Positions 3,078 to 36,613 of a DNA stretch of 50,190 nt are shown in pieces; the stretch's first letter is position 1, and each line of letters begins with the position of its first letter. This DNA comes from a virus: the UHGV virus genome UHGV-0011768. One strand, 5' to 3'. The position numbers and the translations under genes are program-made. Under the pieces are notes generated by a model, which saw nothing but the letters and a program-made list of their open reading frames with translations, was not told the DNA's origin and made no database searches.

Positions 3078-3522
3078 GACGTTCTTCCTCCTCCACGGCC
3101 TTGCGGGCGCCCTCTTTCATCTCGTCTTCTGCTTTGGTGATTACATGCTGCATGGCATCTTTCTTCGTCTGGAACGTTTCTCCATGCGCAGACCACCAGC
3201 CTTCCACGGTCTGGCATACTGACCTGGATACAAGGTGTGCAAGCATGTCTTCCAGCCGCTTCACCTCAGCCCGCAGCCGCAGGATTTCCTCGATGTCTGC
3301 CCGCACCACATCGGGGGAGCTGGCGGCGATATGGGCGGCATTTGCTTGCGGGTCGCCTGAGCATCCCCATTCAGTGAAGCAGATGCACGTCGCATCGTTG
3401 TCTTCAGGGCTTTTTTTCGTACCCACAATAGCCGCAAGGGTATGATACCACGGCCCCTGCGTAGCCTTCTCGGCCAGCTTCAGCCGTTCGCGCAGGGCGG
3501 CCTCGCTGCGGTTATTCGGCAT
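3070..3522 (-). CDS. ead/Ea22-like protein
   Basis: 150 aa. GPWY...NAAHIAASSPDVVRADIEEILRLRAEVKRLE motif typical of the lambdoid ead/Ea22 family. Confidence 0.6.
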   Translation of the reverse strand: MPNNRSEAALRERLKLAEKATQGPWYHTLAAIVGTKKSPEDNDATCICFTEWGCSGDPQANAAHIAASSPDVVRADIEEILRLRAEVKRLEDMLAHLVSRSVCQTVEGWWSAHGETFQTKKDAMQHVITKAEDEMKEGARKAVEEEERHG

Positions 3523-6790: not shown

Positions 6791-6945
6791 ATCGTTTGCT
6801 TTGGCTGCTCATCAGGCCGTGGCCGCCACGCCACGACGACGCCCCAGGGAGGGGCGTTTCGCTTGTGTCACATGGATTTGCAGCAATCCCTTTTGTTGCT
6901 CAAAAAACGGGCTTTGAGTTGACACAAGGCCCGTTCAACGGAGGG

Positions 6946-11253: not shown

Positions 11254-11327
11254 TGGTGGAGCCAGTGGGACTTGAACCCACGTTGCCGCCGTGCAAAGGC
11301 GGAGTTCTCCCGCTGAACTATGGCCCC
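11254..11327 (-). tRNA. tRNA-Ala (anticodon UGC)
   Basis: Manually folded: acceptor GGGGCCA/TGGCTCC with G3:U70, D-arm GTTC/GAAC, anticodon stem CCGCC/GGCGG, loop TTTGCAC, T-arm GTGGG-TTCAAGT-CCCAC, encoded CCA. Confidence 0.85.
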
Positions 11328-11337
11328 GTGAAAATCA

Positions 11338-11412
11338 TGGTCGGAGCGGCGGGGCTTGAACCCGCGCCCACCTGCTCCCAAAGCAGGTGCGCTGCCGCTG
11401 CGCTACGCTCCG
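11338..11412 (-). tRNA. tRNA-Pro (anticodon UGG)
   Basis: Manually folded: acceptor CGGAGCG/CGCTCCG, D-arm GCGC/GCGC, anticodon stem CCTGC/GCAGG, loop TTTGGGA (G37), T-arm GCGGG-TTCAAGC-CCCGC, encoded CCA. Confidence 0.85.
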
Positions 11413-20850: not shown

Positions 20851-21057
20851 ATGCCTGATAATCGTATCCAGGGCTGGAAGGCCATTTGTGACTATCTGGG
20901 CCAGTCCGCCTACCGTATCCGGCGCCAGTGCTATCCGGTCTATCACATGCCCGAATCCAGGCTGGTGTGGGCTGTCCCGGAAGAATTGGACGCCCACACG
21001 GCCCGGCTGTTCACTCGGTGTCGGGAGAAGGTTGAGCGGCAAGGTGTGCCCGGATAA
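20851..21057 (+). CDS. Hypothetical small protein (possible DNA-binding)
   Basis: 68 aa. Convergent 47-nt overlap with 21011..21721. Confidence 0.35.
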   Translation: MPDNRIQGWKAICDYLGQSAYRIRRQCYPVYHMPESRLVWAVPEELDAHTARLFTRCREKVERQGVPG

Positions 21058-21721
21058 TGCGGGCCGCAAGTTTGTTCGCGCTGATCCCATAACGTTTGGC
21101 TTCTTGCCCCAACTCCTCCCATTCGACTGCGGCCAAAGTGACGCTGCGGTTGATGGCGTCCTCTCGGGTGCTATTCTCTCCACCCTTTTTTCGTCCAGCT
21201 CCGGGGCGCGCCCCGCCCCGGGGATCTTTTTTGGCTTTATCCTGCATCCTCCGCTCCTTCCTCCTGGCCTCAGATTTGACAAGAGACAAGCGCCTCCCCT
21301 CGCGTCTGCACGCCTCAGAGCAATAACTGTTTTTCCCGTGGGCCTGGTAGGCTGCCCCGCAAATGGGGCAGATGCGCTCTCCTTTGCGCCGCTTTGCATT
21401 GCGCAAGGGATTTATCGCATCCTTATGCTCGGCGTAGTAGGCCATCCCTTGTGCGCTATCGACGGCTTTGACGGCATCCGGGGCACACGCCGGGCAGTAC
21501 CGTTGGTTCGGCCCGGTGACAGTGTATGGCGCGCCACAGACGGCACAGCTATCCGTGCTGCCAAGCTCTCTCACATCCCCCGCCCTTTTGCGGGCCTTGT
21601 ACGCTGCCGACTGTTTTTTTCGCCTCTCCAAGCGGCACTGGGGGCAATACCATGCGCGTGGGCCGCCCAGAAATGAGCGGCCACATGCGCGGCAGGTGCG
21701 TTGCTTCAACGGGCACCCCAT
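21011..21721 (-). CDS. Triple zinc-ribbon repeat protein with basic region and C-terminal HTH
   Basis: Three tandem C-x2-CG-x-x-Y...YC-x2-C units (CRACG..YCPQC / CAVCGAPY..YCPAC / CPICGAAY..YCSEAC), then Lys/Arg-rich segment and ISANKLAARIIRAHLA HTH. Confidence 0.5.
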   Translation of the reverse strand: MGCPLKQRTCRACGRSFLGGPRAWYCPQCRLERRKKQSAAYKARKRAGDVRELGSTDSCAVCGAPYTVTGPNQRYCPACAPDAVKAVDSAQGMAYYAEHKDAINPLRNAKRRKGERICPICGAAYQAHGKNSYCSEACRREGRRLSLVKSEARRKERRMQDKAKKDPRGGARPGAGRKKGGENSTREDAINRSVTLAAVEWEELGQEAKRYGISANKLAARIIRAHLAAQPSPDTE

Positions 21722-21725
21722 ACCG

Positions 21726-21941
21726 TTATCCGATGATCAGGTCTTCGGGGGCCAGCTCCAGATAGCGGCGCAGGAATGCCAGGTTGGTGCAGGGGGCCAG
21801 CTCACTGTGAACGGCTTCGCGGGTCTCGGCGTCCATGACCTCGACAATGGCGTCCCAGAGGGTACGGTCGTCAATGGTGGGCATGGCTTCGTCGGCGCTC
21901 ATGTAGGAGCTGCCATTGTTCAGGCTGATTTCCTTGCTCAT
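21726..21941 (-). CDS. Hypothetical acidic small protein
   Basis: 71 aa, middle gene of minus-strand cassette. Confidence 0.4.
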   Translation of the reverse strand: MSKEISLNNGSSYMSADEAMPTIDDRTLWDAIVEVMDAETREAVHSELAPCTNLAFLRRYLELAPEDLIIG

Positions 21942-21957
21942 TTTTTACTCCTTGTTG

Positions 21958-22326
21958 TTACAGGGCCACGGTCACGCGGCCGGTGGTGATCTTGAGGTTA
22001 TAGGGGGCGAGGAAGGCTTCCATTTCCTCGATGTATTCGGAGGACATATAGCCCTTGCCGATGTTGACGGTCAGCTTGTCGTCATCGACGCGGGCCCAGG
22101 TCTTCTTGTCACCGGCATAGTTCCAACTGCGGTGCTGGAAGACCACGAAGCCCTTTTCGTTGGTGATGATCCGGGGCTTGTTAGATTCGGCCTTGATTTC
22201 GGCCCAAGCTTGGCGGAGACATTCGCCGAAGATGATCTCGGAGGCCTTGCAGTCAAAGCGGGCGGCAGCGGCGCGGCGGATGGCGTGGGCAAGCATCATA
22301 ACTCGGCGGGTGATGGTGGTCTTCAT
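21958..22326 (-). CDS. Hypothetical basic protein, first gene of cargo cassette
   Basis: 122 aa. AAGGGAGG RBS. Directly downstream of a consensus promoter. Confidence 0.5.
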   Translation of the reverse strand: MKTTITRRVMMLAHAIRRAAAARFDCKASEIIFGECLRQAWAEIKAESNKPRIITNEKGFVVFQHRSWNYAGDKKTWARVDDDKLTVNIGKGYMSSEYIEEMEAFLAPYNLKITTGRVTVAL

Positions 22327-22352
22327 GGTCTTTCCTCCCTTTCGTTAAATAC

Positions 22353-22399
22353 AATATATCTACCATTTTGAAAAATGTCAACTATTTTTTTCAAAATAG
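22353..22399 (-). promoter_or_regulatory. Near-consensus sigma70 promoter (TTGACA-17-TATATT) flanked by palindromes, driving 22326..21011
   Basis: Minus strand -35 TTGACA (plus 22376-22381), 17-nt spacer, -10 TATATT (plus 22353-22358). Inverted repeats TTTTGAAAAA (22366-75) / TTTTTCAAAA (22387-96) and CTATTTT/AAAATAG (22382-99) bracket the -35. Confidence 0.6.
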
Positions 22400-22405
22400 A
22401 CCATA

Positions 22406-22454
22406 TTTTTTTTTCTTCCCTTCCCCTCGCTTCCCTTCCTTTTCCTTCGCTTCA
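22406..22454 (+). repeat. Polypyrimidine (CT) tract
   Basis: About 50 nt of almost pure T/C (TTTTTTTTTCTTCCCTTCCCCTCGCTTCCCTTCCTTTTCCTTCGCTTC) between divergent units. Confidence 0.8.
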
Positions 22455-22525
22455 CGAATTTTTCCAATTAAGACAAAATCTTCCGAGTGTGCTACGATGG
22501 TCTCAAATTTATCAGGAGACCACCC

Positions 22526-23098
22526 ATGCCCAGAATCCCCTACCGCAAAGTACCCGGCAAGATCGTGGCAGGCGCGGCTCTCGTGGCCCTGCTGGGGGTT
22601 CGTGCCGCTACTCTGACTGTCGAGCAGGTGGCCGAGTTCGAGGGCTATGTGCCCCAGGCCTATCAGGATCCCGTGGGCATCTGGACGAAGTGTTGGGGCG
22701 ATACCACGGACGTGACGCCAGGGCAGACCTACACTTTCGACCAGTGCGTGCGCTCCCTGAACCGACAGGTGTTGGCCCATGCCAAGCCCGTCATGGAATG
22801 CGTCCCGGAACTTGAGCATCAGGACGATCTGGTCAAGGCGGCGTTCGTCAGCATGGCCTACAACATCGGGACTAACGGCTTTTGCAAGTCCACTGTGGCT
22901 CGTTATGCCAATGCCGGGGACTGGGAACGGGCCTGCAAGCGCATGGCCGAGATCTACAAGACGGCCAAAGGACAGGAGCTTCCGGGGCTCGTGAAGCGTC
23001 GCAAGCTGGAATCCGAGCTGTGCTTGGAAGGGGTGCGGGGGAAGGTTTTGCTTGAGGCGAACAGCGGGCCTAACTGGCAGCGCAGGGAGGTGCGGTAA
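22526..23098 (+). CDS. SAR endolysin (GH24 T4-lysozyme-like muramidase with signal-anchor-release N-terminus)
   Basis: N-terminal Gly/Ala-rich weak TM (KIVAGAALVALLGVRAA), then E...GYVPQAYQDPVGIWTKCWGDT catalytic motif. AGGAGA RBS. Confidence 0.8.
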   Translation: MPRIPYRKVPGKIVAGAALVALLGVRAATLTVEQVAEFEGYVPQAYQDPVGIWTKCWGDTTDVTPGQTYTFDQCVRSLNRQVLAHAKPVMECVPELEHQDDLVKAAFVSMAYNIGTNGFCKSTVARYANAGDWERACKRMAEIYKTAKGQELPGLVKRRKLESELCLEGVRGKVLLEANSGPNWQRREVR

Positions 23099-23639: not shown

Positions 23640-23778
23640 AGAGCCACGCGGCGGCACGCCCCCCGGCCGCCGATCGCTCTGGGAAATCGTGGGGCTAGGC
23701 CGACGGGCCGAAAGGGCGGCATCTCGCACCGCCTTGCCCCACACAAAACATGCGAGGCCATAAGCGAGATCGGCATGA

Positions 23779-24213
23779 ATGACGAACAGCTACGCGATAA
23801 TCCGTGCCATTGCGAAAGTCGAGGGGATGACACCGGCGGAACGGTGGGCCGGTGCAATGATTGCCGTGCACCTGGATACGAAGCGGAACCAGATCAGGGT
23901 CAGGCAAAGCCTGATCGCCGAAGAATCCGGCTTGAAGGAACGGTGTGTGCGCGGCGCGGTGGCAAAAATGGTGGCCGCAGGGATCTTTCGGAAGGTCAGA
24001 ACGCAAAAGGGGCTGGTGCTTGTCCCGACGCTCGTGGATCAGGGGACGCTTGTAAAAGAGTCTGTAATATATCCACCGGCACGCTCATGCCGGTCGGACC
24101 GGCACGTACATGCCGGTCGGAAAGGAGAAGCCCCCTGGGAATACGACCTCGAACTGAGCAGCAGGCCGGAAGAGGAATACAAGCGGCAGGAAGCACGGTT
24201 CGCGCAGGAGTGA
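23779..24213 (+). CDS. Winged-HTH DNA-binding protein upstream of terminase
   Basis: wHTH (QSLIAEESGLKERCVRGAVAKMVAAGIF). Contains the tandem palindromic repeats at 24076-24121. Confidence 0.5.
   Translation: MTNSYAIIRAIAKVEGMTPAERWAGAMIAVHLDTKRNQIRVRQSLIAEESGLKERCVRGAVAKMVAAGIFRKVRTQKGLVLVPTLVDQGTLVKESVIYPPARSCRSDRHVHAGRKGEAPWEYDLELSSRPEEEYKRQEARFAQE
24076..24121 (+). repeat. Two adjacent 23-bp direct repeats, each an 18-bp palindrome CCGGCACGnnCATGCCGG
   Basis: CCGGCACGCTCATGCCGGTCGGA / CCGGCACGTACATGCCGGTCGGA, differing at 2 positions. Lies inside the 3' part of the wHTH ORF, 210 bp upstream of terS. Confidence 0.85.
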
Positions 24214-24333: not shown

Positions 24334-24840
24334 ATGCCAAAACTGACGGATAAGCAGACCGCGTTCGTGCGGGAATACCTGGTGGATTTGAACGCCACGC
24401 AGGCTGCTATCCGTGCAGGATACAGCGAGCGGACGGCCAGCAGGATAGGCCCGCAGCTGCTTGGAAAAACTTGTGTCCGTGAGGCCATCGAGAAGGCCCA
24501 GGCCAAACGGGCTCGGCGCGTAGAAGTCACGCAGGATTATGTCCTCTCAAATCTGGTCGAGATTGTGGAGCGCACCATGCAGCGTGCGCCGGTTCTGGAC
24601 CGCAAGGGCGAGCAGGTTACGGATGAAGAGGGCCGGGCCGTGTGGACGTTCGACGCCAAGGGGGCAAACCGCGCGCTGGAACTGCTGGGCAAGCATCTGG
24701 GCATCTTTACGGACAAGATAAGGGCAGAAGTATCGGGCCCGGACGGTGGGCCGGTGCAATCGTCCATGACCTTGGACATCAGCGGCATGGGGCCTGCTGA
24801 AATCGCAGAGCTGGCACGCAGCGCTTTCCGGGGGGAATAG
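24334..24840 (+). CDS. terS: Terminase small subunit (P27 / Terminase_2 family)
   Basis: LTDKQTAFVREYLVDLNATQAAIRAGYSERTA signature. Confidence 0.85.
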   Translation: MPKLTDKQTAFVREYLVDLNATQAAIRAGYSERTASRIGPQLLGKTCVREAIEKAQAKRARRVEVTQDYVLSNLVEIVERTMQRAPVLDRKGEQVTDEEGRAVWTFDAKGANRALELLGKHLGIFTDKIRAEVSGPDGGPVQSSMTLDISGMGPAEIAELARSAFRGE

Positions 24841-33773: not shown

Positions 33774-34020
33774 GATACAAACTCCAAGATTTTTCTATTG
33801 GCCCTTGCTGAGAAATAGCAAAGGCCGGGAGCTAGAAACCGTCTTGGAACGGCGGGCATATTCCCCTTGCGGGTATTGTATTAGCCCACTCCCGGCCATC
33901 AGATAGCCGACATCATAGCCCCAAAAAAGGGCAAAGAAAAAGCCTTGACTTACGGGAAAGGCGTCCGTCCAAGAGGAGTTTCTAGGCTCCGTAAGAAGAG
34001 GACGCCACAAAATGAGGGAA

Positions 34021-34064: not shown

Positions 34065-34814
34065 TTACCATAACCCCGCTTGCTGGCAGGGTTCCTTGAC
34101 GAATCGATTTTCATTGCCCTGGAGCCGTTCTATCCGTTTGGCGCGGGTACACTCCCACTGATCCACAGGATACATCTTGTCCCAGGCACGGAAGAGCTGC
34201 TCCTGCTGTCGGCTGAGGCGGTACTTGGCATAGCTATCAGCCATGTAGAACGCGGCGCGGGCCACCTGTCCTTTTGAACGGGCGGGAGGCTCGAACCTGT
34301 TCCCGTCCACCTTGGCCTCACAGGAGCCAAAGGCCGAGACAGAGCCGGGAAGCTCCGAATATTGCCTGTTGCTGCGGAGAGCATTTACAGCACCGATGGC
34401 GGGGAACAGGTTGTACATGTCAGCCTGCATGTGGCGGTACTCCTTGTTCACCTTCTCAGCGCACTTACGCCCTTTGAACGCCCTCCCCTTGCTCACGCAC
34501 TGAGGATGTCCCTCCCGCCATTCCACGAAGGCACGACCGAAGTTTTCAGCGGGGACAGCGTGCTCCCATTCGACCTTGCGAGCACGTTTTTGGTATTTGT
34601 CCGTCGCGAACCCTACAGGCAAGTCGATGTTTTTCTTTTCATCGAACAGGGCTCCACAATAGACCGTGACCCGGTGGTCAAAGTAGACCTGTTGCTCCAG
34701 CATCTTTTTAGCCTTTGAGAAGCTGTCGTTTGTCTCGTTACCGGCGGCGGTGGCTAGGCTGGCTACACAAAAGAGCAGGGCAGCAGCAATAAAAAGTGTC
34801 TTGATTTTTTGCAT
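34065..34814 (-). CDS. endA: Secreted endonuclease I (EndA/Endonuclease_1 family periplasmic/extracellular DNase)
   Basis: Signal peptide MQKIKTLFIAAALLFCVASLATAAG, then VYCG...VEWEHAVPAENFG...ADMYNLFPAIGAVNALRSNRQY pattern of the endonuclease I family. Lower GC than phage backbone. Confidence 0.7.
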   Translation of the reverse strand: MQKIKTLFIAAALLFCVASLATAAGNETNDSFSKAKKMLEQQVYFDHRVTVYCGALFDEKKNIDLPVGFATDKYQKRARKVEWEHAVPAENFGRAFVEWREGHPQCVSKGRAFKGRKCAEKVNKEYRHMQADMYNLFPAIGAVNALRSNRQYSELPGSVSAFGSCEAKVDGNRFEPPARSKGQVARAAFYMADSYAKYRLSRQQEQLFRAWDKMYPVDQWECTRAKRIERLQGNENRFVKEPCQQAGLW

Positions 34815-34825
34815 TATCTTCTCGC

Positions 34826-34850
34826 AAAAAAAGCCCCGCCGGAGCGGGGA
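34826..34850 (-). terminator. Rho-independent terminator (minus strand) between membrane-protein gene and endA
   Basis: Minus strand CCCCGC-TCCG-GCGGGG then TTTTTTT. Confidence 0.6.
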
Positions 34851-34856
34851 CATGGT

Positions 34857-35516
34857 TTACTGAACTAGGTATTGATCAATCCATTGAACCTCATCTGATT
34901 CAGCAGGATAGATAATAGCCGCACCGTATGAGACCTTTTTCCCCGTTCTTTTGCAGGTAGCAGAAGCAATAATCATGGTTTTTCTTTTTTTCATTTGATT
35001 TTCGCTGACCCCTTGCTCTTCCATACCTTTTAAAACGGCTAATGCTATAGCCTGTGATGCAAATTGAATCATTTCTTTTTGCAGGCTTTTGTTGAATTGC
35101 ACCTCAATAGCATAGGTCGTACCACCTTCAGCACCAAACTGATGCCACGAGATGTCGTACCTCCCTCCAGTTCTGCCGTACTTCTCATTCAGGGTCGCCG
35201 TAATCTGGCGCATGTCGCGCCTAAGCTTTTGAGTCAGTTTGTCTTTTGAAATCTTGTTACTACTTACCGGGGCACGGGATTCTACACGCGTCCCTTCCGA
35301 AGTTGTATTTATGACATTGGGCTCATTTCTTCCACTAGAGAAATACCAAATAAGAAGGAGTATCGCTAAAGGAATGCCGAATGCCTTCCAGATAGAATCC
35401 TTTTTCTTTTCGAGGGATTTCCTATCTTCGTCTGTGACAGGGCGGCCACATTTGGGACAGGCCGAAGCGGAGCTAGATATTTTGTTTTTGCAATCCGGGC
35501 ATTTAAACATAGCCAT
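34857..35516 (-). CDS. Zn-ribbon / single-TM membrane protein with extracytoplasmic domain
   Basis: CPDCKNK...CPKCGRP ribbon, TM IPLAILLLIWYF, about 150-aa C-terminal domain. GC roughly 42 %, clearly foreign to the phage backbone. Confidence 0.5.
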   Translation of the reverse strand: MAMFKCPDCKNKISSSASACPKCGRPVTDEDRKSLEKKKDSIWKAFGIPLAILLLIWYFSSGRNEPNVINTTSEGTRVESRAPVSSNKISKDKLTQKLRRDMRQITATLNEKYGRTGGRYDISWHQFGAEGGTTYAIEVQFNKSLQKEMIQFASQAIALAVLKGMEEQGVSENQMKKRKTMIIASATCKRTGKKVSYGAAIIYPAESDEVQWIDQYLVQ

Positions 35517-35614
35517 CTCTATTCACCCTCCTTCGCTTTTTTCGCGGCGTCATACTGCGTGGCCGTGGCGCGGATACGGTCGCCCAGGGGCAGAATGTCA
35601 TCCAGCTTGTCGAT

Positions 35615-36613
35615 TTACACCTTGGCGTCCTTGTTCTCCCCGTCGAACAGACCGACGAACCAGGGCCGTTTGTTAAAGTGCAGGCGCAGCAGGGGCTTGA
35701 ACCGGCCGTCGAGGACGATATTGCAGTACGCCTGCCAGTCCTGGAGCTTGATACGTTCGGCGTCCACTACGCCCATAAGCAGCGATTTGACCAGGTAGAA
35801 GGCTTCCCGCTCTTCCTCCGTTGTCACGATATTGGAGGTAACCGGTTTTTCTTGAGCCTCTTCGGGAAGATCCGCAGGCAGGCTTTCAGGGGCTTCCGGC
35901 CGCTGGGTCATGGCACTTTTGAGGCGCTCATTGATGCGGTCATTGATGAACTGATCCAGCGCGGCCACGAGGATCGGCGTAAACCGTTCGCGGACTTTCT
36001 GGGTGATCATCCCGTCATAGGTCTGGCTGATGAAGAAACGGGCAAAATCCTCGTGAGGATTGTCCATCTGTTCGGCCATGATGCGCTTGAACTCGCGGTT
36101 GTATTTCAGTTCGTTGGCCGCGCTCAGGCAGGCATCGCGGTCAAATTTGCCCTTGGCCAGCTTGCGCAGCTCGGGGATGAGCGTCTCGTCCATATCGGAC
36201 AGGCAAAACTCCATATAGGGCTTGCTGTCCATGCGGTTGGTGTCTTCGAGATCGGAGTAGAAGCGGTAGCGGTTCCCGTCCGTCAGGATGGCAATAGGGG
36301 CTTCCGTGCCGTGGAAATACAACTGGAGCTGGTTGCATTGCTTGGTGTCCAGTGCGGTGCCGAAAGCCTTGCACTCAATCAACAGAATCGGCTTCCCGTC
36401 AGCGAGGATGGCGTAATCAACACGAGCGTCTTTGTACTCACCGATAGGGGCTGAAAATTCCGGCACCACTTCGCTGGGGTTGAATACGTCGTAACCAAGG
36501 GCTGCAATGAACGGCATCACCAGTGCGTTTTTCGTGGCCTCTTCCGTCCCCAGGGTGTCCCCGATATTCCGTACTTTTTTAGTCAGCCCTGCGATTTTTT
36601 CAGAAAAATCCAT
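35615..36613 (-). CDS. Standalone PD-(D/E)xK nuclease-fold protein with HsdR-N-like N-terminal domain
   Basis: MPFIAALGYDVF...EYKDARVDYAILADGKPILLIECK matches the type I restriction HsdR N-terminal nuclease fold (D...E.K). About 180-aa uncharacterised C-terminal half. Own promoter TTGCGA-17-TTAAAT and AGGGAGG RBS upstream. Confidence 0.55.
   Translation of the reverse strand: MDFSEKIAGLTKKVRNIGDTLGTEEATKNALVMPFIAALGYDVFNPSEVVPEFSAPIGEYKDARVDYAILADGKPILLIECKAFGTALDTKQCNQLQLYFHGTEAPIAILTDGNRYRFYSDLEDTNRMDSKPYMEFCLSDMDETLIPELRKLAKGKFDRDACLSAANELKYNREFKRIMAEQMDNPHEDFARFFISQTYDGMITQKVRERFTPILVAALDQFINDRINERLKSAMTQRPEAPESLPADLPEEAQEKPVTSNIVTTEEEREAFYLVKSLLMGVVDAERIKLQDWQAYCNIVLDGRFKPLLRLHFNKRPWFVGLFDGENKDAKV

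Follow-up and report, generated by a model that had tools for sequence, protein, structure and literature searches.

This report concerns a minus-strand cassette of three genes (orfA, orfB and orfC, in the order of transcription) in the virus genome UHGV-0011768; the whole stretch of 50,190 nucleotides that was analysed is referred to below as the window. We believe that the cassette is probably an autoregulated anti-defence operon of a temperate phage, of the type in which anti-CRISPR (Acr) cargo is followed by a gene for an anti-CRISPR-associated (Aca) DNA-binding protein. The second gene, orfB, is a member of the AcrIC5 anti-CRISPR family; the third gene, orfC, encodes a zinc-ribbon protein with a C-terminal domain of the ribbon-helix-helix (RHH) kind; and the promoter contains an inverted repeat that is conserved in related loci. 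Systems of this kind are known already, and orfB adds a new member to an established family. None of the named Aca families includes the orfC protein, whose domain architecture is new for the Aca role.

Results

As the preliminary description of this DNA had stated, three minus-strand open reading frames (ORFs) of 122, 71 and 236 amino acids (aa) run counter to their neighbours; the coordinates of the cassette elements are given in Table 1. Against diverged homologous loci, the ratio of nonsynonymous to synonymous substitution rates (dN/dS) is 0.22-0.37 for orfA, orfB and orfC, with the exception of two orfB pairs; therefore, we consider the three to be genuine genes under purifying selection, and the earlier assumption that they are coding is borne out. 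In particular, the ratio is 0.23-0.37 for orfA and 0.22-0.29 for orfB in four informative pairs. The exceptions are the near-identical orfB pair with L088 (0.88, from only 8 differences) and the pair with L010, for which dS is saturated (here and below, L with a number designates a related locus).

Table 1. Elements of the cassette in the window and composition of the cargo upstream of the orfC-like gene in the window and in related loci
Feature	Position or locus	Strand	Basis or remark
Sigma70-type promoter TTGACA-17-TATATT	-35 22381-22376, -10 22358-22353	-	sequence match
Ribosome-binding site AAGGGAGG	22341-22334	-	7 nt before orfA ATG; conserved in related loci
Putative operator, inverted repeat CTATTTTGAAAAA (22399-22387) / TTTTTCAAAATgG (22375-22363)	22363..22399	-	brackets -35 box
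orfA, 122 aa, pI 9.5; second candidate anti-defence cargo	21958..22326	-	weak AcrIIA3 / Gp111 resemblance
orfB, 71 aa, acidic; AcrIC5-family homologue	21726..21941	-	Pfam PF22147
orfC, 236 aa, pI 9.9; three zinc ribbons with a long helix after each, basic arm, C-terminal RHH	21011..21721	-	
orfC zinc-ribbon repeats, residues 10-29, 59-79, 118-138	21308..21694	-	Cys motifs, beta-hairpins in AlphaFold2 (AF2) model
orfC low-confidence basic arm GGARPGAGRKKGG, residues 168-180	21182..21220	-	pLDDT <50 at model positions 175-184
orfC C-terminal RHH DNA-binding domain, residues ~191-230	21032..21151	-	profile and fold matches
Cargo: 122 aa + AcrIC5-like	window, L001-6, L088		upstream of orfC-like anchor
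Cargo: 144-aa orfA variant + unrelated 84-aa protein	L076, L078		
Cargo: 37-aa in-frame orfA remnant (N- and C-termini joined) + 84-aa protein	L077 2615-2728		
Cargo: 67-aa or 102-aa protein + AcrIC5-like	L080-83		adjoining integrase
Cargo: acidic 67-aa domain fused to AcrIC5-like	L084, L086		
Cargo: 114 aa + AcrIC5-like	L010		
Cargo: AcrIC5-like at C-terminus of longer ORF	L040		
Cargo: first ~10 orfA codons fused to 84-aa gene	L087 ~3200-3456		

The preliminary description had recognized none of the three proteins, which does not hold for orfB. Its product (pI 4.17, net charge -9.4) matches the Pfam model PF22147 (AcrIC5) with 36.9 bits (E=4.2e-9) against a gathering score of 27, and the same domain is found in 47 of its 51 database homologues. 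The best PDB match is an AcrIC5 as well (7YHR); it is weak when orfB alone is searched (E=0.095) and improves with a profile of the family (0.0019). The N-terminal block 'ISLNNG' is conserved in the subfamily, but neither the Pfam match nor the one to 7YHR includes it.

Pseudomonas is the genus in which AcrIC5 was found; the protein blocks CRISPRi, i.e., target-DNA binding, and it also inhibits the divergent type I-C system of Eggerthella lenta (PMC7913775). Its orthologues are reported from Proteobacteria, Firmicutes and Actinobacteria, gut species included (PMC7913775, Leon et al. 2021). The protein is highly acidic, and its predicted seat is the site of Cas8c that binds the protospacer-adjacent motif (PAM) (bioRxiv 10.1101/2025.06.06.658234).

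AcrIC5-like sequences were also noted in other phages. Gp12 of Bacillus phage Mgbh1 is the clearer homologue (51% identity, E=3e-15); two gut Microviridae/gokushovirus genomes, MG945373.1 (3814-3909) and KT264799.1 (3744-3839), give weak tblastn matches to the AcrIC5-like core in unannotated regions (E=4e-3 and 0.2, respectively).

A fixed DNA-binding anchor combined with small cargo that is exchanged fast is the classical signature of acr-aca operons. In the related loci, the orfC-like gene is the constant 3' gene, and its upstream genes undergo exchange, fusion or deletion (Table 1). Phages with three different replication modules (L001-L006) carry an identical cassette at the same antisense site between the RusA and lysozyme genes. 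The gene orfA occurs without orfB in L076 and L078, and orfB occurs without orfA in L080-84; remnants of orfA are tolerated in L077 and L087, and these deletion derivatives show fast decay and rearrangement inside the cassette. The acidic 67-aa protein and the AcrIC5-like protein are encoded by adjacent genes in L081-83 (L081 573-1119) and form a single fused protein of 132-153 aa in L084 (2603-3001) and L086, which suggests that the two act jointly.

An unrelated 84-aa protein (MLLTFDFNGTSFRAKDTAQYNNCDERIAVV...), for which there is no Pfam family, replaces the AcrIC5-like gene directly upstream of the anchor in L076-L079, L087, L013, L089 and L090. The locus of Desulfovibrio piger ATCC 29098 is among those that encode it. 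We regard this protein as a good Acr candidate. Its presence in a BLAST cluster of AcrIC5-like proteins was an artefact: over-extended ORFs translated a shared 5' leader.

The same D. piger strain provides the nearest relative of orfC in an isolate genome (84% identity). This homologue is devoid of the RHH domain; close to it lies an RHH gene of its own, which encodes the same basic arm. In L012, a stand-alone RHH gene (70 aa) comes after an AcrIC5-like gene. A megablast search of 18-26 kb against GenBank phages gave no match. In L056 (3312-3878, a Lachnospiraceae metagenome-assembled genome), the protein encoded upstream of an orfC-like gene has a C-terminal HTH_3 domain of its own and a very weak, sub-threshold match (E=0.0038) to the C-terminal end of Cas8c/Csd1; it is probably due to chance, albeit in a type I-C context.

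The promoter of the cassette had been described as the strongest in the window, and it is indeed the only match of at least 11/12 to the sigma70 consensus on either strand of the 50-kb window. Dinucleotide shuffles contained 0.12 such matches on average, and at least one was present in 10% of the shuffles. The stretch from the -10 box to the ribosome-binding site is identical among the diverged cassettes of L076, L084 and L088.

Two inverted repeats had been reported around the -35 box, and only the first of them is conserved; the second (CTATTTT/AAAATAG) is present in the window, while L084 has CGCTTTT. The core of the first repeat, TTTTGA-N15-22-TCAAAA, is found once in the window against 0.05 expected. 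The promoter exists in three diverged versions, P1 (the window), P2 (L076, L077, L088) and P3 (L080-83), all of which retain TTGACA between TTTTGA and TCAAAA; the promoter of L084 is a variant of P1 with TTTACT at -35. P1 is always paired with version 1 of the RHH domain, and P2 with version 2. The same half-sites precede a distant Bacillota operon (L047), whose zinc-ribbon protein ends in an AP2 domain. Judged by this conservation, the repeat looks functional; its candidate readers are the RHH domain, the AT-hook-like arm and the conserved zinc ribbons of orfC.

Directly upstream of the putative operator, the cassette strand carries a polypurine tract of about 45 nt (22410-22456), of the GAAGG/GGGAA type and with an A9 end. 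It is retained in L084 and replaced in P2-type promoters.

The orfC protein contains three zinc ribbons, in agreement with the preliminary description, which had given all of them the same C-x2-C ending; the third one ends in CxxxC. The cysteine motifs are C10xxC13...C26xxC29, C59xxC62...C76xxC79 and C118xxC121...C134xxxC138, and the first two ribbons bear the family signature CxxCG..F.GGPRAWYCPxCRxER / CxxCG..Y....Q.YCPxCA. In the AF2 model (predicted local distance difference test score, pLDDT, 87.9; the models of orfA and orfC were made without Met1), three beta-hairpin ribbons are each followed by a long helix. The basic arm after them, apparently flexible, resembles an AT-hook; its motif is kept ahead of all three RHH versions and in the stand-alone RHH genes.

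A helix-turn-helix (HTH) domain had been assigned to the C-terminus of orfC, and this assignment has to be replaced. A profile of the C-terminal domain matches MazE6 (E=0.008) and EndoAI (0.014) in PDB, followed by CopG and a NikR-like protein; Pfam RHH_4 and RHH_1 match this region weakly; and the local Foldseek matches of the model are the RHH proteins CdbA and NikA only. Hence, the domain is a ribbon-helix-helix. In the model it appears as a short extended segment followed by two helices. The whole orfC model has no significant Foldseek match in PDB, and the matches of orfC to PHROG 'HNH endonuclease' are confined to its zinc-ribbon part.

The first gene, orfA, gives 22 bits with PF07410 (Streptococcus phage Gp111), under the gathering score of 27.1, and 19 bits (E=0.0011) with the NCBIfam model AcrIIA3_fam (NF033948), whose cut-off is 70; weak matches to the latter are found in 24 of the 30 orfA family members. 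The AF2 model (pLDDT 82) consists of an N-terminal helical hairpin and a small alpha/beta domain. Foldseek found no significant fold match for it in PDB and only one uncharacterised gut-phage protein in BFVD; tblastn of orfA against phages gave no match. The relation of orfA to AcrIIA3, suggested by these profile scores, is a lead only.

The cassette is antisense to its surroundings and lies between the RusA and lysozyme genes. On the plus strand, it is flanked by the genes for a Toprim/DnaB primase-helicase and RusA and by two small genes on one side, and by the genes for phage lysozyme, two small proteins and terminase on the other. The window also encodes an integrase and a CI-like S24/HTH repressor, and the phage is therefore considered temperate. 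Neither cas genes nor CRISPR arrays were found within the window. The 3' ends of orfC and of a convergent 68-aa gene overlap by 47 bp.

About 140 nt past the end of this convergent gene, within orfC, the plus strand contains a GC-rich hairpin followed by a T-run (21199-21233, CTCCGGGGCGCGCCCCGCCCCGGGG ATCTTTTTTG; -21.9 kcal/mol, with a z of only -1.5). It could end rightward early transcription ahead of an antisense run through the cassette. On the minus strand, the same positions are codons for the conserved KKDPRGGARPGAG linker of orfC. On the other side of the cassette (22499-22528, plus strand), the AGGAGA ribosome-binding site of the lysozyme gene is part of a small hairpin (GGTCTC-N11-GAGACC, shared with L084) and lies within its 3' arm. 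The lysozyme gene probably starts at ATG 22526 (a 190-aa product, as called in related contigs) and not at GTG 22487.

Discussion

The preliminary description regarded the cassette as a moron-type autonomous accessory element. This view stands: the cassette has its own strong promoter with an operator-like repeat, a small acidic protein and a DNA-binding protein encoded at its end. We presume that it works as follows. Upon entry of the DNA, the sigma70 RNA polymerase of the host would fire the near-consensus promoter, and the strong ribosome-binding site together with the tight gene spacing would give a burst of two small proteins. The orfB protein would bind the type I-C Cascade and, as a DNA-like competitor, block target-DNA binding; its likeliest contact is the face of Cas8c that recognises the PAM. 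The gene orfA would be the second cargo gene. The orfC protein would build up more slowly, dimerise via its RHH domain, bind the TTTTGA...TCAAAA repeat and shut the promoter off. Such repression would limit the cost of a very strong antisense promoter between early and lysis genes. The host is probably a gut Desulfovibrio-like bacterium, to judge from gene similarity, and the solved type I-C Cascade (7KHA) comes from Desulfovibrio.

Several observations weigh against this interpretation. The alignment of orfB with AcrIC5 is limited to residues 28-62, and the pairwise similarity (E=0.095) is weak. The link between orfA and AcrIIA3 is under every curated threshold and has no structural support. 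The half-sites of the repeat are constant while the beta-strand of the RHH domain varies (RSVTLA, NSIGLL, RQVTMT), and their spacing drifts from 17 to 20 nt; thus, the repeat and the RHH domain are without clear co-variation. The repeat is located in DNA of 20% GC, where A/T palindromes form easily. Most orfC-like genes follow small family-less or HTH proteins, and AcrIC5-like proteins precede only a minority of them. Finally, the assignment of the host comes mainly from one gene (orfC, by its similarity to D. piger).

The cassette could also be directed at a defence other than CRISPR: the AcrIC5-like fold may have been re-used against, e.g., restriction-modification, or the zinc-ribbon module or orfA may be the effector and orfB an accessory protein. 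The match to AcrIC5 spans only the helical core of orfB (about 35 residues), the conserved 'ISLNNG' block is outside it, and an ArdA-like anti-restriction gene is located close to a more distant AcrIC5-like gene (L007). No element is more conserved than the zinc-ribbon module, which is joined to many DNA-binding domains, like the effector part of an Acr-Aca fusion. On the other hand, orfB is over the curated Pfam threshold, its acidity and size fit AcrIC5, the latter is documented to be broad in both host and target range, and no anti-restriction or other anti-defence family in Pfam, PHROG or NCBIfam matches orfA, orfB or orfC. We consider a target of this kind unlikely.

A phage regulatory cassette, in which orfC controls development (lysis and late genes or lysogeny) and the small proteins are anti-repressor-like partners, seems to us quite unlikely. 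The location between RusA and the lysis genes is indeed that of lambdoid late regulators; the palindromic region has weak promoter-like matches in both directions (TTGAAA-18-CAAAAT), orfC is strongly basic with several putative nucleic-acid-binding modules, and many of its relatives adjoin HTH proteins. However, the unit of promoter and cassette is also found away from lysis genes, i.e., beside the integrase in L080-83, between lysin and integrase in the accessory region of Paenibacillus phage BN12 and even outside phages, as a three-gene islet beside host genes (L047). Such cargo turnover is unexpected for a core regulatory circuit. Late-gene regulators (Q, Ogr/Delta, ArpU/RinA-type), a match to which the preliminary description had named as evidence against itself, are absent among the Pfam, PHROG and NCBIfam matches.

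The other proposal of the preliminary description, a toxin-antitoxin or abortive-infection module expressed in lysogens to protect the host, agrees with the small basic/acidic gene pair under an operator-flanked promoter and with the antitoxins MazE6 and EndoAI as the nearest PDB sequence relatives of the RHH domain, but it is highly improbable: PADLOC gave no significant match for the three proteins (a single one, for orfC, had E=0.0024 and 15 bits), no toxin family was found for them in Pfam or NCBIfam, orfA and orfB are found apart and therefore are no obligate pair, orfA remnants persist without loss of the locus, the acidic protein is in an anti-CRISPR family, and the RHH domain is fused to zinc ribbons and not to a toxin-neutralising tail.

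Returning to the anti-defence operon, its anchor belongs to a large protein family. A profile search yields 2064 representatives of it at E<=1e-3, and at least 318 sequence clusters remain at E<=1e-30. In many gut phages, the family gene closes a small cassette of variable content. Most of them are annotated as zinc ribbons only; a minority is fused to HTH_3, HTH_17, AP2, sigma-70 region 4 or MqsA-type domains. The members are found in 232 IMG/VR contigs and 63 genomes, mainly those of Oscillospiraceae, Negativicutes and Desulfovibrio. Among cultured examples are Paenibacillus larvae phages, in which the gene lies in the lysin-integrase accessory region and is mis-annotated as the TnpX recombinase; in Flavonifractor phage Cormatin, it terminates an inverted three-gene cassette. 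The upstream partners are diverse small proteins without a Pfam family, several of them acidic. Literature searches on the zinc-ribbon family PF18912/DZR_2 and on the CRISPR types of D. piger returned nothing useful.

It is tempting to propose that the GGPRAWYCPxCR zinc-ribbon module marks a large unannotated family of anti-defence cassette anchors in phages and mobile elements of gut anaerobes (Desulfovibrio, Oscillospiraceae, Negativicutes, Paenibacillus); we put this forward as a tentative idea, possible rather than probable. The module could be a new non-HTH class of Aca regulators whose ribbons read the AT-rich repeat; alternatively, the module could be a novel effector to which exchangeable autorepressor domains are fused. 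If either version is true, the anchor family is a guilt-by-association handle on the family-less small proteins encoded upstream.

The discovery of anti-CRISPRs relies on anchor genes. To our knowledge, nearly every Acr anchor known to date is an HTH Aca protein, and these come from Proteobacteria and a few Firmicutes. Type I-C systems are common in gut anaerobes, and hardly any Acrs are known from their phages. Should the orfC family regulate anti-defence operons or supply their effector, it would give access to the anti-defence genes of these phages, and the 122-aa, 84-aa and 67-aa proteins would become added candidates. Should this function not be borne out, what is left is an ordinary, well-explained accessory operon and no new defence system.

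Other features of the window

A second minus-strand cassette of lower GC content (34065-36613; 0.52-0.54 compared to about 0.6-0.69 in the flanking kilobases) is found past the structural genes. It encodes an HSDR_N-like protein (332 aa), a zinc-ribbon protein (219 aa) and a protein of the Endonuclease I family (262 aa), and may be a defence or nuclease accessory cassette. Directly downstream of it, there is a match to the Rfam family sRNA-Xcc1 (33815-33897, minus strand, 72.6 bits).

After the lysis genes, the Rfam int-alpA RNA motif (23688-23757, plus strand; 42.9 bits, gathering score 35.8) precedes a 144-aa ORF without a Pfam family (23779-24213) and then an ORF (24334-24840) whose counterpart in related loci bears Terminase_2. 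The left part of the window contains the integrase gene (1043-2185) and a strong match to the type II hammerhead ribozyme (6799-6864, minus strand; 78.6 bits, gathering score 37). The genes for tRNA-Ala(TGC) and tRNA-Pro(TGG) stand side by side at 11254-11412 on the minus strand; this pair may mark an attachment site between two integrated elements, or the host flank.

Comparison with known systems

The cassette resembles the acr-aca operons with HTH repressors (Aca1-Aca13) in its general plan: small co-directional cargo directly upstream of a DNA-binding gene, a strong promoter overlapped by an inverted repeat, a conserved anchor with varying cargo, and location in a mobile element. It differs from them in the anchor, which is non-HTH and matches no named Aca; the 236 aa of orfC are three to four times the length of Aca1 (79 aa) or Aca14 (66 aa), and the triple zinc-ribbon array takes up most of the protein.

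The binding of AT-rich inverted repeats by an RHH-type Aca has been established for Aca14 (Feussner et al. 2026, PMC13551039). The likeness consists in an RHH domain in the Aca position and an AT-rich inverted repeat in the promoter. However, Aca14 is a stand-alone protein of 66 aa, whereas in orfC the RHH domain makes up the last, C-terminal fifth of a protein with zinc ribbons; the repeat of Aca14 overlaps the -10 box while that of the cassette brackets the -35 box.

Acr-Aca fusion proteins are known (PMC8934645). As in AcrIIA1, AcrIIA13-15 and the relatives of AcrIIA24/29/31/32, a conserved non-regulatory module is combined in the orfC family with an exchangeable or missing DNA-binding domain; the partners are RHH (three versions), HTH_3, HTH_17, AP2, sigma region 4, or none. 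The zinc-ribbon module differs in being basic and similar to nucleic-acid binders, unlike the typical acidic Acr, and no inhibitory activity is known for it.

The resemblance of orfA to AcrIIA3 and Gp111 consists in weak matches to both NF033948 and PF07410; the scores are far under the cut-offs, and the N-terminal helical hairpin alone aligns. The acrIIA3 operon of Streptococcus with an AP2-domain protein has a promoter much like that of the cassette, TTGACA-17-TATACT with an inverted repeat (PMC12658196), and some relatives of orfC are zinc-ribbon proteins with an AP2 domain.

As to orfB and AcrIC5, orfB passes the curated threshold and, like AcrIC5, is small, very acidic, helical and phage-borne. 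It differs in length (71 aa compared to 60 in the 7YHR chain), with only the central residues (about 35) aligned, in its conserved N-terminal extension (ISLNNG...), and in having no association with aca1; some of its relatives are fused to another acidic domain.

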